From positions 1 to 25,550 of the forward strand of contig JAYUBZ010000134.1 in assembly GCA_043740595.1 (NCBI GenBank): a stretch of DNA of 25,550 nucleotides, read 5' to 3'. The DNA is from Gammaproteobacteria bacterium. Its GTDB lineage: Bacteria; Pseudomonadota; Gammaproteobacteria; Acidiferrobacterales; UBA6901. A program made the position numbers and the translations under genes. Below are positions 1-11,619 of this stretch, one piece after another. The notes beneath the pieces were generated by a model. That model did not search any database and was not told the origin of the DNA. It worked only from the letters and a program-made list of their open reading frames with translations. Positions within the stretch are counted from its first letter, which is position 1. Each line of letters begins with the position of its first letter.

Positions 1-687
1 CGCGATCTCTACGAAAGCATCCGCCTGGCGCTGCACGACAAGGTGCGCAGCGAAATCCAGAAGAAGGGCCTCGCCCGCAGCCAGATCGTGATCCTGGACG
101 CGCTGCTGAAGCTGCGACAAGTCTGTTGCGATCCGCGCCTGTTGAAACTCGATAGCGCGAAGAAGGTGAAGCGCTCCGCCAAGCTAGAACTACTTATGGA
201 AATGCTGCCGGCACTGCTGGAGGAAGGCCGGCGCGTGCTGTTGTTTTCACAATTCACCAGCATGCTGGCGCTGATCGAGGCGGAACTGAAAGAACGCCAC
301 CTCGACTACGTGCTGCTCACCGGCGACACCCGCGACCGCGCCACCCCCATCGATCGTTTCCAAGCCGGCGAGGTGCCGCTGTTTCTCATCAGCCTCAAGG
401 CCGGCGGCATCGGCTTGAACCTCACGGCCGCCGATACCGTGATCCACTACGACCCGTGGTGGAACCCGGCGGTCGAGCGCCAAGCCACGGACCGCGCGCA
501 CCGCATCGGCCAGGACAAAACGGTGTTCGTGTACAAACTCATCACCGCCGGCAGCGTGGAGGAAAAGATCGGCCAGTTGCAGGCGCGCAAACAGGCGCTG
601 GCGGATGGGGTGTACGGCAAGGCCGGCGCCGAGGGACCGGCGTTTACCGCGGAAGATCTGGAGGCGCTGTTTGCAGCAGCGGAGTGA
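1..687 (+). CDS. SNF2/RAD54-family (DEAD/DEAH-like) helicase, C-terminal part; 5' end lies outside the window
   Basis: Frame is open from base 1 ([20 protein letters not shown]...). SNF2 HelicC motifs: [69 protein letters not shown] at 685-687. Confidence 0.92.
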
Positions 688-696
688 TGGGGCCAC

Positions 697-879
697 TTAT
701 CTGAACCTGATGCCCGATGGTCTACACGCGTATTTTATTGCTGTCGACATACCGTCCCAGGTTCTTCCGGCGAAAATACGCCCATAGTCCCTTTTTGGCT
801 GTCTCTTGTCGTCCGCGCCCCACCTGCTCCATTGCCTGAAGAAGAACGTTACACCGCGTTGCTCGTATTGTGAGATTTT
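697..879 (-). pseudogene. Degraded 3' remnant of a DUF5131 (phage Gp37/Gp68-like, three-Cys radical-SAM-like) gene
   Basis: Start-less minus-strand frame reads KISQYEQRGVTFFFRQWSRWGADDKRQPKRDYGRIFAGRTWDGMS...*. This resembles the DUF5131 C-terminal pattern as I recall it (GVxFFFKQWGGWG...GRxLxGRTWDxMP). The N-terminal Cys motif region is absent. Confidence 0.65.
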
Positions 880-884
880 GTAAC

Positions 885-1487
885 CTATTGGTAGCGGGCC
901 GCTAACTCATCTATGCGCCTGCGCGCGCTGGCCAAACTTGGTGAACGTATTGCGGCTCGTTCAGCACTCCAATCTTCGCGCACAAATTGCCCAAGCATTG
1001 AGTTGTAACCGATTCCTTGGGCGGCTATTGCCCCAGGCGCCTTGATCAACTCCTCGCGAATCGCGCGCGGGGCTTTTTTTGCAAGTTCAAGCAGTGTTTG
1101 CTTGGGATCGCCAAGGGTATCCGGCTCAATAGGAATTTTCTTGGATCTGATTTTTAACAAGTTGGCGAGCGCCTCGGCATCCGCCATCAGCCAGGACTCA
1201 ACCTCTCGCACGGCAACCCGAAATAACATATCTTGTGGAAGCTTGCCACCACCCTTCCATGTCGAAATCAATAGAGGAGCGCAGGCCACACGATCAAGAT
1301 CGGTAATCAGCAGCACAGGCAATGAATAGGCAACCCGCGTGAGTTCCGGTAGCTTCTTTTTCAAATTACCGGCGCCTTTCCCGGGTATTTTTGTATCAAC
1401 ACATAGCACACCCCCGGTTTCGAGAATCAGGCGTTCGGCCACAGCCTCAGTCAGGGCGTCCTCGGTCGCGATAACCATGCTCTTCAT
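885..1487 (-). CDS. DUF4276-type TOPRIM-like protein (putative nuclease effector), 200 aa
   Basis: N-terminal strand with acidic residue (VIATEDALTE), DxD motif (LLITDLDR) and family-type REVESWLMAD motif. Its ATG directly abuts the TGA of the upstream ATPase. Confidence 0.75.
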   Translation of the reverse strand: MKSMVIATEDALTEAVAERLILETGGVLCVDTKIPGKGAGNLKKKLPELTRVAYSLPVLLITDLDRVACAPLLISTWKGGGKLPQDMLFRVAVREVESWLMADAEALANLLKIRSKKIPIEPDTLGDPKQTLLELAKKAPRAIREELIKAPGAIAAQGIGYNSMLGQFVREDWSAERAAIRSPSLASARRRIDELAARYQ

Positions 1488-2642
1488 TCACCACAACCCC
1501 AATTGCTCAACGCCCGCGGGTCGTGTTTTTGGCAGCACCACCTCGGCTACTGACAGTCCGGCCTCCAACGCTTTGGTTTCAGTTTCGCTAATCGGCCGGA
1601 CGCGCGACCCCTCTCGGTCAGCCTCCAGAACCACCACCCCCCGTCCGTCTATGCCTGGATTGCTCAACATTACATCGCTATGAGTACTGATAATGACTTG
1701 GCGGCGATGTTTGGCTTGGCGTAGTGCGCGATCGATCAATAGCGGAATCTGCTCGACCACCGCCTGGTGCAGTGAAAGCTCAGGTTCTTCAAGCAACAGT
1801 AGGGAATCGCCATCCAATAGTGACCACAGCAAACCAATCAAACGCAGCGTTCCATCCGAAAAATGCTCCTCACGCTGCCATGCGCCCTGTGGCCGATGAT
1901 GTTCATACAAGGCCTCCAAATGCGGTCGGCCCGTCGCTTCGTCAGGATGGAAACGCAACTCCTTGAACTGGGGCACGGCTGCGGCAAGCGCCTTGGCGAT
2001 CTTCCGCAACCGTGCTTCGCGCGTATTTTTTGAGCACTTGGCGATTCGCTCCAGAAAACCCTGCCCGAAGGGGTCATCCTCAAGACGCTGGCCCCCGATC
2101 TTGTCTCCGTATTTAAGTAGCTGCGGTACCAGATGCAGGTAGGTTATATTACTGAAAAATTCCGCAATATCTCTAAACTTTACGTTGGTCTGAATCTGCT
2201 CCAGATACGTTTGCGTAAGCAACTGGGTGTCTTTTTTATCTTGGTCGTTCGGACGACTGAACAATCGGCGTCCAGCGTGCCAAACTTCCTCGGTTGAGAC
2301 AAGCAACCGCTGCGCACCTTTGCCCTCCGGTTTAAACCCAAGTATGTACTTCCATGTCGGCTCGACTGGCTCCGCTTTCTCAGCCAAATGAACCTCGATG
2401 CGAACTTCTGTATCCCGCCGCGCATGCAAACAACGCAGTTTGGATATGCCCCCTCGGTCATCCACCGCTTTCTGGAGCCCCCCGCCGTTCGGCTTACTGA
2501 CGTCACGCAGCAAGCGGAACACGTCCAGCAAGTTCGACTTGCCAGATGCATTCGGGCCAATCACATAAGTTCTGGCAGCCAGTGGCACAGCCGCCTCACG
2601 AAAGTTGCGCCAGTTTTTCAGATGCACATGGGTGGCCAGCAT
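1488..2642 (-). CDS. ABC-type ATPase (AAA_21/AAA_15-like, SMC/RecF/OLD-related), 384 aa
   Basis: Walker A GPNASGKSN, signature-like FSDGTLR, Walker B/D-loop LLLLEEPELSLH, H-loop ISTHS. SD GGAG (2651-2654) lies 8 nt upstream of the ATG. Confidence 0.9.
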   Translation of the reverse strand: MLATHVHLKNWRNFREAAVPLAARTYVIGPNASGKSNLLDVFRLLRDVSKPNGGGLQKAVDDRGGISKLRCLHARRDTEVRIEVHLAEKAEPVEPTWKYILGFKPEGKGAQRLLVSTEEVWHAGRRLFSRPNDQDKKDTQLLTQTYLEQIQTNVKFRDIAEFFSNITYLHLVPQLLKYGDKIGGQRLEDDPFGQGFLERIAKCSKNTREARLRKIAKALAAAVPQFKELRFHPDEATGRPHLEALYEHHRPQGAWQREEHFSDGTLRLIGLLWSLLDGDSLLLLEEPELSLHQAVVEQIPLLIDRALRQAKHRRQVIISTHSDVMLSNPGIDGRGVVVLEADREGSRVRPISETETKALEAGLSVAEVVLPKTRPAGVEQLGLW

Positions 2643-2689
2643 TACTCGATCTCCAATATCTTCAGCGACTCAATCCTGTGACCATCCAT
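2642..2689 (-). pseudogene. 15-codon mini-ORF MDGHRIESLKILEIE; probable 3' remnant of a type III-like site-specific DNA methyltransferase (Mod) gene
   Basis: Its TAA overlaps the ATPase ATG (TAATG). The peptide resembles the recalled C-terminus (I)VDDRGIESLK(I/V)xxx of large N6/N4 DNA methylases. It is in frame with, and 9 nt after, the AbrB stop. Confidence 0.55.
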
Positions 2690-2698
2690 AACGCTCGA

Positions 2699-2923
2699 TT
2701 AGCCGCGGGTCAGGACCAAGATCTCGTCAGTGCTCATGGACCGGGTGGCTTTGTCGCGCAGGTGCGCGATCAGGCGTCTGCGGCGTATAGGCGATTTACC
2801 GGTTTTTTGCAGCACCACCACGCCGTGACGCACGGCGAATTCCACCTCAGTGTCTGGAAACAGGCCGGCCTGCTCACAAACTTCCGCTGGAACAGTGATC
2901 CGGCCCTTGCGGGTGATGCGCAT
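2699..2923 (-). CDS. AbrB/MazE/SpoVT-family DNA-binding antitoxin-like protein (VapB-type), 74 aa, with no cognate toxin downstream
   Basis: MRITRKGRITVPAEVCEQAGLFPDTEVEF...STDEILVLTRG matches the AbrB/VapB N-terminal pattern. Start reassigned to the ATG at 2923 because a GAGG SD precedes it; the ORF track start at 2974 is over-extended. Confidence 0.8.
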   Translation of the reverse strand: MRITRKGRITVPAEVCEQAGLFPDTEVEFAVRHGVVVLQKTGKSPIRRRRLIAHLRDKATRSMSTDEILVLTRG

Positions 2924-2947
2924 GGCGTGTCCTCGTGGATTTTTTCG

Positions 2948-2976
2948 ATAGTAAGGCCTGCTCATCCCGGACACAA
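2948..2976 (-). promoter_or_regulatory. Putative sigma70 promoter for the AbrB-ATPase-DUF4276 unit
   Basis: Minus strand TTGTGT (2976-2971), 17 nt spacer, TACTAT (2953-2948), 25 nt upstream of the AbrB ATG. Confidence 0.55.
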
Positions 2977-3009
2977 GCGACGACCAATATCAAACCTTAT
3001 GCACGCCGG

Positions 3010-4596
3010 CTAAGCCTGCTCGCGCGTCGCGTTAAAGGTGATCTCCGGCCAGCGCTCCATGGTCAGCTGCAGGTTCACCCGTGACGGCGCGAGATAGGCC
3101 AGCTCACCGGCACCGTCCCGCGCGAGGTTGTCGCGCAGTTTTTTCTCGAAATCGGCCAGCATTTTCTCGTCGTGACACACGATCCAGCGTGCCGTTTTCA
3201 CCTGCACCGGTTCGAAGACCGCGTCCACGCCGTATTCGTTCTGCAGACGGCTCGTCACCACGTCGAACTGCAGGGTACCCACCGCACCGAGTATCAGTTC
3301 GTTGGAATTGAGCGGGCGGAACAATTGGGTCGCGCCTTCTTCCGTCAATTGCTCCAGGCCTTTTTGCAGCGCCTTCATCTTCATCGGGTTCTTGATCTGG
3401 GTGCGGCGGAAGATTTCCGGGGCAAAATTGGGAATGCCGCTGAACTTGAGTGCTTCCTTTTGAGTAAAGGTATCACCGATGCGCATAGTGCCGTGGTTGT
3501 GCAGGCCCAGGATATCGCCGGCGTAGGCCTCTTCCACAGCGACACGTTCCTGTGCCATGAAGGTAATGGCGTTGGCAACGGTGACCTCGCGGCCGAGGCG
3601 CACGTGGTAGAGCTTCATGCCCGGCGTGTATTTACCCGAGCAAAGTCGTATGAAGGCAATGCGGTCACGGTGATTGGGGTCCATGTTTGCCTGGATCTTA
3701 AAGACGAAGCCGCTGAGGGCCTCTTCCTCCGCCCGCACCAGGCGCCCCCCACCGTCCCGAGGTTGCGGTCCCGGGGCAACCTCCACAAAGCTGTCGAGTA
3801 ACTCCTGCACACCGAAATTATTCACGGCGGAGCCAAAAAACACGGGCGTCTGTTTACCGGCGAGATAGGCCGCCAGGTCGAAGGCATGGCTGGCGCCACG
3901 CACTAACTCCACTTCCCCGCGGAACTCCTGGGCCTGATCCCCCAGCACCTCGTCCAGGCGCGGGTTGTCGAGGCCTACGATCACTTCGCCCACATTGATC
4001 TTGCCACCGTGGGTCGGCGAGTACAGATGTACGGACTCGGTGTGCAGGTGATAGATGCCCTTGAAGCGCTTGCCCATGCCGATGGGCCAGGTCACCGGCG
4101 CGCATTGGATGTTCAACACCTTTTCCACTTCGTCCAACACCTCCATGGGATCGCGCCCCTCGCGGTCCATCTTGTTGATGAAGGTGGTGATGGGGGTGGT
4201 GCGCAGCCGGCAGACTTCCATGAGCTTGATGGTACGGTCCTCTACACCCTTGGCGATATCGATCACCATGAGGGCCGAGTCCACGGCGGTGAGGGTACGA
4301 TAGGTGTCTTCGGAAAAATCTTCGTGACCCGGGGTGTCGAGCAGGTTGACGATGCGGTCTTTGTAAGGAAACTGCATGACCGATGAGGTGACAGAAATGC
4401 CGCGCTGCTTTTCCATTTCCATCCAGTCGGACGTGGCATGGCGTGCCGCCTTACGTCCTTTGACGCTGCCGGCGAGCTGAATCGCGCCGCCAAACAGCAG
4501 GAGCTTTTCGGTTAACGTGGTTTTCCCTGCATCCGGGTGGGAAATGATCGCAAAGGTCCGGCGACGGGCAACCTCACGCGTGATCTCAACTGACAT
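3010..4596 (-). CDS. prfC: Peptide chain release factor 3
   Basis: [56 protein letters not shown]; 528 aa, typical RF3 length. Confidence 0.98.
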
Positions 4597-10539: not shown

Positions 10540-11619
10540 TCAGGTTGCTTCTTCGATACCACCTCGTTCCACGTGAAACACTTTGTGCGATAACCAGCCC
10601 TGGGTGTCCACCAAACCTGCCTCGGTGGCGGTAATAAATACCTGTAGAGACATGCTGGAGAGGGTGTGCATGAGCTGTTGTCGGTGTCGTGGATCCAGTT
10701 CAGCCGCAAGGTCGTCAATCAATACTACGCAGTGACGACGGGTTTTTTGAGTAAAGATTTCCATTTGAGCCAGGCGTAACGCGATCACCAATAATTTCTG
10801 CTGGCCATGGGAGGCACTGATACGGGCAGGTTGGCCGGAAAAAGAGAGGCCTATGTCGGCACGGTGCGGCCCGGAGTGGGTGCTGCCGGTTTGTAAATCC
10901 CGCCCACGCTCTTTGTGTAGTGTTTGATCCAAACCGATGTCGGACTCCCAGCCCTGCTTAAGTTCAATTTCTGCTTCAGAAACGCCCAGGAGATGAAAAC
11001 AATAGTGTTGAAAACGACTATTCCATTCTTCAAGAAACTGACGGCGGTAGGCCTGTAGGCGTTCGCCGGATTCCACCAGTTCCGGATCCCAAGCAAAACA
11101 CGCCTTAGGGAGTTGGCGGGCCTTCAGGGCCGCATTGCGTTGGTTGAGCGTCCGCTGATAGCGCATCCAGTGGCCATAAAAATCTGGTTCCACGTGAAAC
11201 ACCCCCCAATCCAATATCCCCCGGCGGTGTCGTGTATTAGTAAAAAATTGGAAATGACTATCAGGAGAAATAATTTGCAAGGGCAGGGTGCGTGCCAACA
11301 AAGAGGCGCTTGGTTGGGGGCTGCCCCCCAGGCTGAAACGCGAGTGTTGGGTATCACGTTGTAGCGCTAAGCGGGTTGCGGGAACGCCATCGTCATAAAA
11401 CTGCCCACTTACTAGAAAAGCAGGCGAGCTGTGTCGAATGAGTTGATTTAGGAGGGTTGTGCGAAAGCTGCGGCCTGTTCCTAGAAGATGTATAGCTTCG
11501 AGTAGGCTGGTTTTCCCACTGGCGTTATGACCAACAATCAGGTTAAGGCGGAGAGCGGGCGCAAGTCGGATTTTCTCGAAAAGGCGAAAGTGCTCCACTT
11601 CAAGCAAAGTTAGAGGCAT
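10540..11619 (-). CDS. recF: DNA replication/repair protein RecF
   Basis: GHNASGKTSLLEAI (Walker A), LDWGVFH, GPHRAD, SHGQQK, LIDDLAAELD; sits between dnaN and gyrB. Confidence 0.97.
   Translation of the reverse strand: MPLTLLEVEHFRLFEKIRLAPALRLNLIVGHNASGKTSLLEAIHLLGTGRSFRTTLLNQLIRHSSPAFLVSGQFYDDGVPATRLALQRDTQHSRFSLGGSPQPSASLLARTLPLQIISPDSHFQFFTNTRHRRGILDWGVFHVEPDFYGHWMRYQRTLNQRNAALKARQLPKACFAWDPELVESGERLQAYRRQFLEEWNSRFQHYCFHLLGVSEAEIELKQGWESDIGLDQTLHKERGRDLQTGSTHSGPHRADIGLSFSGQPARISASHGQQKLLVIALRLAQMEIFTQKTRRHCVVLIDDLAAELDPRHRQQLMHTLSSMSLQVFITATEAGLVDTQGWLSHKVFHVERGGIEEAT
10565..10580. other. parS centromere site 1, inside recF
   Basis: CGTTCCACGTGAAACA versus consensus TGTTTCACGTGAAACA; encodes VFHVER on the minus strand. 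Confidence 0.85.
11186..11201. other. parS centromere site 2, inside recF
   Basis: GGTTCCACGTGAAACA; encodes VFHVEP on the minus strand; 621 bp from site 1. Confidence 0.85.

Follow-up and report, generated by a model that had tools for sequence, protein, structure and literature searches.

What kind of element is the pair of genes that lies near prfC in a member of the Gammaproteobacteria (order Acidiferrobacterales), and does it belong to the defence systems of this bacterium? The window, by which we mean the whole stretch of DNA analysed here, is the entire 25.5-kb contig JAYUBZ010000134.1 (25,550 nucleotides) of assembly GCA_043740595.1, a fragmented metagenome-assembled genome with 344 contigs and a completeness of 75.7%. 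The two genes, called A and B below, encode an ATP-binding cassette (ABC) ATPase and a small protein with a TOPRIM fold. They are preceded by a short leader that is shared with a copy of the pair in another bacterial family (genome G345).

1488-2642, minus strand: gene A, HEC-01A-type ABC ATPase of the AAA_21/AAA_15 family, 384 amino acids, identified from its open reading frame, hidden Markov model (HMM) matches, motifs and fold
885-1487, minus strand: gene B, HEC-01B-type DUF4276 protein with a TOPRIM fold, a putative nuclease of 200 amino acids, identified from its open reading frame, HMM matches and fold
2643-2665, minus strand: leader of the cassette, 23 nt with a GGAG ribosome-binding site, shared with the G345 copy

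Read on the minus strand, the junction of A and B is ...TGG TGA ATG AAG..., with zero gap and zero overlap. Neither gene has an internal stop, and both open reading frames are intact. A first-pass annotation, made by a model from the letters alone, had described exactly this arrangement, two abutting minus-strand genes (TGA|ATG) free of frameshifts and internal stops, and the list of open reading frames together with the sequence bears it out.

Is the pair new? In the PADLOC collection, A matches model HEC-01A (PDLC04180) with E 5.4e-153, residues 1-382 lying on profile positions 1-379 of 382, and B matches model HEC-01B (PDLC04194) with E 7.1e-56, residues 4-198 lying on positions 6-200 of 204. 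Values of this size (5e-153 for A, 7e-56 for B) rule out chance reading frames. The gene arrangement is also that of HEC-01, as both genes lie side by side on the same strand, A upstream of B. Judged by these sequence profiles, the pair is the PADLOC candidate system HEC-01 (Hma-embedded candidate 01) and is already catalogued, as the first-pass annotation had thought possible; its HEC-01A and HEC-01B models cover the two proteins end to end. HEC-01 was defined through guilt-by-embedding in Hma systems (Payne et al., bioRxiv 10.1101/2024.01.29.577857) and was described there as an ABC ATPase with a TOPRIM protein that shares the metal site of BpOLD (bioRxiv 10.1101/2024.01.29.577857). Our pair agrees with that description in its full-length HMM matches and in the position of the ABC ATPase upstream of a small TOPRIM-like protein, and some of its relatives are Hma-embedded as described. 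There is no substantive difference; the present copy is solitary and not Hma-embedded, like about 90% of the sampled copies.

The residues on which an ATPase and a nuclease would depend are retained in both proteins. We compared them in two alignments, A1 with 50 homologues of B (45-89% identity) and A2 with 27 homologues of A (identity down to 44%). The motifs with their positions in the window are as follows.

2535-2558, minus strand: Walker A of A, G29-P-N-A-S-G-K35-S36, read in the sequence and conserved in A2
1458-1463, minus strand: TOPRIM acidic pair E9-D10 of B at the end of strand 1, after predicted strand 2-8, invariant in A1
1293-1301, minus strand: DxD motif D63-L64-D65 of B at the end of strand 3, after predicted strand 58-63
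1191-1208, minus strand: block R94-E95-V-E97-S-W99 of B after strand 4, the second acidic pair, from A1

Protein A carries the full ABC set of Walker A, Q-loop (candidate P173-Q174), signature, Walker B, D-loop and H-loop. In A2 there is no or almost no variation at G29, N31, A32, G34, K35 and S36 of Walker A, the signature S262-D263-G264-T265, the Walker B/D-loop block E285-E286-P287-E288-x-S290-L291 and the H-loop H321-S322. At the family level A matches Pfam AAA_21 (PF13304) with E 7.5e-35, and AAA_15 matched too. Among the proteins to which its sequence profile extends are GajA, Rad50, TsOLD, PtuA, the retron Eco8 nuclease and RecF-type heads. The best Foldseek matches of its AlphaFold2 model (predicted score of the local distance difference test, pLDDT, 83) are PtuA, the SMC head and Rad50 with E about 1e-14, and by this model A is an SMC/Rad50/PtuA-like ABC head without the long coiled coil. 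Residues 168-203 (about 2034-2141 in the window, minus strand) are nearly invariant, including P173-Q174-L175 and D190-P191-x-G193. The model gives residues 173-189 a pLDDT below 50 although they are near-invariant. This conserved and probably flexible loop could serve as a sensor or as a nucleic-acid contact.

In B, residues T62, D63, L64 and D65 are invariant in A1, as are R94, E97 and W99, with E95 present in at least 90% of the sequences; K129, Y161 and W173 are invariant too. The AlphaFold2 model of B (pLDDT 93.1, predicted template modelling score 0.89) has strands 2-8, 28-35, 58-63 and 87-92 in the TOPRIM order, and places the acidic motifs at the ends of strands 1, 3 and 4. The top five Foldseek matches are C-terminal regions of OLD nucleases with probability 0.98-1.00. 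A Foldseek-independent aligner (VIA) gave Z-scores of 9.5 for BpOLD, 8.3 for PH0156, 7.2 for TsOLD, 7.1 for GajA and 7.0 for AriB. A sequence-profile search of B against PDB chains returned chance hits only. B matches DUF4276 (PF14103) partially, with 20.8 bits and E 4.9e-4 against a gathering cut-off of 30.2 bits; the same model is matched by all 50 aligned homologues of B at E <=0.01, the best at 1.5e-9. DUF4276 is assigned to the Toprim superfamily, and Mad4 is among its members. The first-pass annotation had read the Walker A and B, signature and H-loop motifs in the ATPase and a TOPRIM-type acidic residue, DxD and EVESW in its partner. These readings stand, with (near-)invariance in A2 and conservation in A1. 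The TOPRIM fold that it expected of the effector is borne out by the modelled strand order and the best fold matches to TOPRIM nucleases. Its wider proposal, a related two-gene module in which an ABC ATPase is paired with a TOPRIM-like DUF4276 protein within the split-OLD/PARIS superfamily, finds support in the HEC-01 models, the TOPRIM fold and the 50/50 matches to DUF4276.

Which characterised system does the pair resemble most? The closest characterised analogue or relative is the MAD3-MAD4 module, not PARIS. This module comes from the MADS system of Pseudomonas aeruginosa (PMC13662399). It is a 2:2 heterotetramer. MAD4 by itself is insoluble; ATPase activity is confined to the complex, which can nick and cleave DNA in the presence of Mg2+ or Mn2+, and toxicity is seen on co-expression only (PMC13662399). 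Like our pair, it consists of an SMC/Rad50/PtuA-like ABC ATPase and a TOPRIM protein of the DUF4276 type, whose TOPRIM part is flanked by a helical domain, and the fold neighbours reported for MAD3 are PtuA, SMC and Rad50, as for A (PMC13662399). The pocket of MAD4 is formed by D12, D55, D81, E83, E119, E121 and K164 (PMC13662399). Matched by motif order, D12, D81, E83, E119, E121 and K164 correspond to D10, D63, D65, E95, E97 and K129 of B. The MAD proteins are somewhat longer, MAD3 about 440 amino acids against 384 in A and MAD4 about 220 against 200 in B.

A co-fold of A with B gave an ipSAE (interaction prediction score from aligned errors) of 0.72, while the best of three controls reached 0.01. 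Of 80 solved complexes, 58 came up to this mark, as did 2 of 110 mismatched pairs; these counts apply only roughly here, as our own alignments were used in the co-fold. The co-fold thus supports a predicted binding of A to B. It puts B on the C-terminal lobe of A, with predicted contacts in A at residues 293-308 (just after the D-loop), 323-334 (just after the H-loop) and 351-367 (the C-terminus), and in B at 10-11, 35-41 and 145-167. In MAD3 the interface is formed by E372-D383, R398 and R425-V443, where D336/G337 mark the signature and H391 the H-loop, and in MAD4 by A11/S13, G44-E51 and R175-S179 (PMC13662399). The experimental interface therefore lies in the same motif-relative regions as the predicted A-B contacts in both proteins. 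We infer this correspondence from motif landmarks rather than from superposition.

On these grounds we propose that the pair would act as an A2B2 ATPase-nuclease of the OLD-like superfamily that is autonomous, becomes active on assembly and serves phage defence or abortive infection; DNA is the substrate that we favour. We give this reading a probability of roughly 0.6. By analogy with MAD3-MAD4, A would form a head-to-head dimer that encloses two ATP molecules; with a pair of B subunits bound to it, this dimer would become an A2B2 particle, in which B would be stabilised. ATPase and Mg2+/Mn2+-dependent nuclease activity would emerge only after assembly. A cue from infection would then lead the nuclease to damage nucleic acid, and phage replication or the infected cell itself would be stopped. 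The substrate would most likely be double-stranded DNA, as in MAD3-MAD4, with tRNA as an alternative. The role of the module is probably defence- or toxin-like. For the link to defence we count the copies in Hma islands, the toxicity of the MAD3-MAD4 complex and one protective HEC-01 representative, which was obtained from a cold seep and protected E. coli B from at least one of T7, T5 and T4 (PMC12881386).

Several points weigh against this proposal. The first HEC-01 representative to be tested gave no protection in E. coli against the BASEL collection and classic phages (bioRxiv 10.1101/2024.01.29.577857), and most guilt-by-embedding candidates show no enrichment near defence genes. HEC-01 comprises many PADLOC sub-models, and the tested representatives may belong to subfamilies other than the present one. 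About 90% of the well-flanked loci of the family are solitary among ordinary genes. The co-fold covered a 1:1 complex, and A2B2 is the stoichiometry proposed by analogy. Kinship to MAD3 and MAD4 at the sequence level is weak: A scores 65.2 bits on the NCBIfam MAD3 model NF047739, whose cut-off is 420, and hhalign of A1 with a MAD4-like protein from G345 gave a probability of 3.8% with only the ExExW block aligned. It is from fold, motifs and the predicted interface, therefore, that the analogy of mechanism is drawn.

We rejected A and B as equivalogs of MAD3 and MAD4. A is below the MAD3 cut-off, B has no match to the mad4 model in the PADLOC scan, and there are no MADS neighbours. No NCBIfam equivalog was found for A or B, and B has no match there of any kind. 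A natural MAD3 from G345 scores 525 bits on the MAD3 model and has only the motif blocks in common with A. MADS contains a methyltransferase and other genes, whereas A-B is flanked by a mazE-like gene and prfC on one side and by a DUF5131 remnant and an SNF2 helicase on the other. The MAD3 equivalog of G345 and its MAD4-like partner, which matches PDLC04136, form a solitary two-gene cassette between surA and pdxA (L046, G345:C3, 875-2754), so that MAD3-MAD4-type pairs also occur outside full MADS loci. G345 holds both this cassette and an HEC-01 cassette whose A protein is 89% identical to ours.

The literature places MADS3-4 and AbiL alongside OLD, Gabija and PARIS, and the first-pass annotation had named PARIS and OLD/GajA for this domain pairing. 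In a PARIS-like scheme A would hold B inactive until a phage protein, for example an anti-restriction DNA mimic, caused ATP-dependent release of B, and B would then cleave host tRNA and abort the infection. The domain pairing is indeed the same, a two-gene set of an AAA_15/21 ABC ATPase and a TOPRIM effector within the OLD-like superfamily, and AriB is among the structural neighbours of B (Z 7.0). The catalytic E9/D10 of B fall within the predicted A-B interface, which is compatible with occlusion. However, the equivalent interface of MAD3-MAD4, where A11/S13 of MAD4 flank the catalytic D12, belongs to an active and not to an inhibited complex (PMC13662399). The effector of PARIS is a DUF4435 protein while B is of the DUF4276 type; both PARIS proteins are larger, AriB having about 300 amino acids against 200 in B; and neither Pfam nor PADLOC models of DUF4435/AriB matched B at E <=0.1. 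In structure, B is nearer to the OLD DNA nucleases and to MAD4-type proteins. A matches the AriA model PDLC02980 (E 3.6e-32, residues 27-326 on positions 4-303 of 304) over the ranges that the generic AAA_21 profile also covers, and its match to HEC-01A is far stronger. PARIS is often borne by phages or satellites, whereas no member of our family was found in 50,697 phage records. The PARIS label proper does not hold, with no AriB/DUF4435 match and a fold nearer to OLD (Z 9.5) than to AriB (7.0), and we regard a PARIS-like mode of action as unlikely. One element of it bears on the A2B2 proposal as well. OLD-family TOPRIM nucleases can be tRNases, since AriB (PMC11464382) and P2 OLD (PMC12445682) both cleave tRNA, so that B may act on tRNA as well as on DNA as a candidate substrate.

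The OLD family itself (P2 Old, BpOLD/XccOLD, TsOLD, GajA) provides the best fold matches of B with its TOPRIM-plus-helical C-terminal regions, and the N-termini of GajA and TsOLD are reached by the profile of A. OLD and GajA are single polypeptides, whereas here ATPase and nuclease are two open reading frames with a stop between them. For this reason we rejected the pair as a single-chain OLD of class 1 or 2. The TOPRIM-Old Pfam model has no match in B.

It is useful to trace the family across other genomes. Within the class, 12 out of 401 genomes gave matches to the HEC-01B model. No two of these share a genus; two of the copies are decayed, and one genome has tandem arrays. A pattern scan detected relatives in 523 species representatives of many phyla, and for the ATPase there are at least 8000 sequence clusters at E <=1e-20. 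All 80 fetched loci have A immediately upstream of B, the genes mostly abutting or overlapping. Markers of Hma-type islands were present in only 3 of 38 well-flanked loci. The Hma-embedded lineage has the order SNF2 helicase, DUF4391, AAA_21 with RloB, N6/N4 methylase, the A-B pair, Macro and ResIII/RE_endonuc. Solitary copies occur after nrdAB in Pseudomonas sediminis, near lptD-surA-pdxA in Burkholderia metallica and beside metE in Pantoea. In Rhodocyclus purpureus (L024/L098, 5532-10609) the pair again sits close to the origin, just downstream of dnaA-dnaN-gyrB; this second such insertion may be a coincidence. Plasmid carriage was limited to one 2.3-Mb Ralstonia megaplasmid. One gammaproteobacterial genome, G101 (L033, L040, L042-L045), has six diverged HEC-01B copies, with tandem A-B-A-B arrays on at least two contigs; its A copies are 42-48% identical to the present A. 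In G293 (L035) the cassette is decayed, with A in three frame-shifted pieces and B truncated, and in G124 (L034) B contains an in-frame TGA.

Such a distribution brings in another reading, according to which the pair would be a selfish cassette of the addiction or toxin-antitoxin type with no dedicated anti-phage role, harmful when lost or unbalanced and spreading horizontally. Most copies are solitary in housekeeping surroundings, as this reading would have it; the decayed copies in G293 and G124, the negative phage test of one HEC-01 representative and the toxicity of the analogous MAD3-MAD4 on co-expression also fit. Yet A, whose active site is fully conserved, is an enzyme and not a labile antitoxin. 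Copies recur within restriction-modification and Hma islands, one HEC-01 representative is phage-protective, and at our locus the cassette has replaced another candidate defence pair in the same slot. Together these points make an addiction cassette quite unlikely. The first-pass annotation had held that homologues sitting mostly in housekeeping contexts would speak against a defence role. Literally this is what we found, most copies being solitary there, but the defence reading is not refuted by it because the cassette is patchy, is horizontally transferred and swaps with other cassettes.

If the cassette moves, then we can ask: What was in its place before? The neighbourhood of the pair contains the following features.

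1-687, plus strand: SNF2-type helicase, C-terminal 228 amino acids, cut by the contig end (PADLOC DpdE-type models, E 6e-101)
736-870, minus strand: C-terminal remnant of 45 codons of a DUF5131 (phage Gp37/Gp68-like) gene, boundary marker outside the module (tblastn)
2699-2923, minus strand: gene with a MazE/AbrB fold, 74 amino acids, boundary marker outside the module (PF04014, E 5.4e-06)
3010-4596: prfC, annotated backbone gene near the pair
10540-11619: recF, the genome's own copy

The order prfC, mazE-like gene, A, B and convergent SNF2 helicase is kept in three other assemblies of the same species, where hslO, a two-component system and bipA follow beyond the helicase. B was not found in 40 relatives from the genus, family and order. 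In a sister species of the same genus (G003), nucleotide synteny runs from prfC to the mazE-like gene and ends at window position 2697, two bases past the mazE-like stop codon. The slot of G003 (L009, G003:C663, 478-3279) contains other cargo, a TcmP-like protein, a DUF5131 protein and an addiction-module antitoxin (Unstab_antitox), the first two of which match the PADLOC candidates PDC-M30/M41. The remnant at 736-870, directly after the stop of B, is 64% identical to residues 205-249 of the G003 DUF5131 protein (tblastn, E 5e-17), so the A-B cassette took the place of the TcmP-like gene and of about 200 DUF5131 codons. As the cargo of G003 differs from ours, the prfC-proximal slot is therefore a hotspot of cassette exchange.

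The G345 copy defines the mobile unit from the other side. There the pair lies between Slp lipoprotein genes and an ABC-F gene, with protein identities of 89% for A and 81% for B, and nucleotide homology covers exactly 898-2665 of the window (81.7% over 1769 nt), that is, the two genes with their 23-nt leader. By these sequence comparisons the 1.8-kb A-B unit is a horizontally acquired cassette, set in the slot between prfC/mazE-like gene and SNF2 helicase about 10 kb from dnaA. Its accessory and mobile nature is indicated by the patchy presence, by the 82%-identical cassette in another family and an unrelated neighbourhood, and by the swap remnant. No direct or inverted repeats with one copy in each junction zone (871-897 and 2666-2696) were found. 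GC content dips locally at the cassette, and GC at third codon positions is 0.60 in A and 0.55 in B against 0.52-0.76 in the core genes of the window; being within the core range, base composition was not diagnostic and we set it aside as a proof of foreign origin.

A 16-codon frame upstream of A, whose stop overlaps the ATG of A, was considered as the scar of a methylase, and this is not supported. It is shared with the G345 copy over only about 25 nt, including the GGAG ribosome-binding site, and G345 has no methylase upstream of A. Nor does the frame resemble the C-terminus of the methylase found immediately before A in the Hma-embedded locus L025. From sequence, the region is best read as the cassette's own leader. 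A scan of 600-3100 for sigma-70 promoters and terminators gave none above shuffled expectation.

Neither neighbouring gene appears to be part of the system. The mazE-like gene was rejected as a third component, as it is kept with prfC in G003, which has no pair, and is absent beside every other A-B copy. It has about 85% nucleotide identity in G003, with no adjacent PIN/MazF-type partner either there or here. The SNF2 helicase was considered as part of an Hma or Dpd system and is not linked to the pair, since the longer contig of the same species has hslO, the two-component system and bipA beside it; it is probably a solitary accessory helicase. Its presence is patchy, in 7 of 21 relatives.

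The place of the locus raises one more reading, a housekeeping DNA-repair pair like RecF (ABC ATPase) and RecR (TOPRIM). The domain logic is the same, the profile of A reaches Rad50 and RecF-type heads, and the locus is near dnaA-dnaN-recF-gyrB, the origin region at 8-14 kb of the contig. However, the genome has its own recF, the pair was not found in the 40 relatives and is present in 3% of the class only, and the cassette was horizontally transferred and replaced a different one. The distribution data nearly exclude a repair function of this kind, and we give it hardly any credence.

What, then, does this locus mean for the family? With the A2B2 ATPase-nuclease as the preferred reading, one may go further and suppose, as a doubtful suggestion only, that solitary HEC-01 copies are autonomous immune or abortive modules. 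They would sense infection through the A insert at about 168-203, would need none of the methylase and helicase partners found around MAD3-MAD4, could have a trigger or substrate (e.g., tRNA) unlike those of PARIS, OLD or MADS, and, as a bare two-gene unit with only the 23-nt leader, might move between unrelated sites of the chromosome free of repeats and recombinases. The window contributes one more ordinary member to a very widespread family, and what is specific to the locus is limited to the base-resolved cassette swap and the MAD3-MAD4-like predicted interface. The first is a clean natural replacement of a TcmP-like/DUF5131 pair by HEC-01 with junctions at base level. The second suggests that the assembly-activated nuclease mechanism of MAD3-MAD4 may extend to the larger, solitary HEC-01 family.

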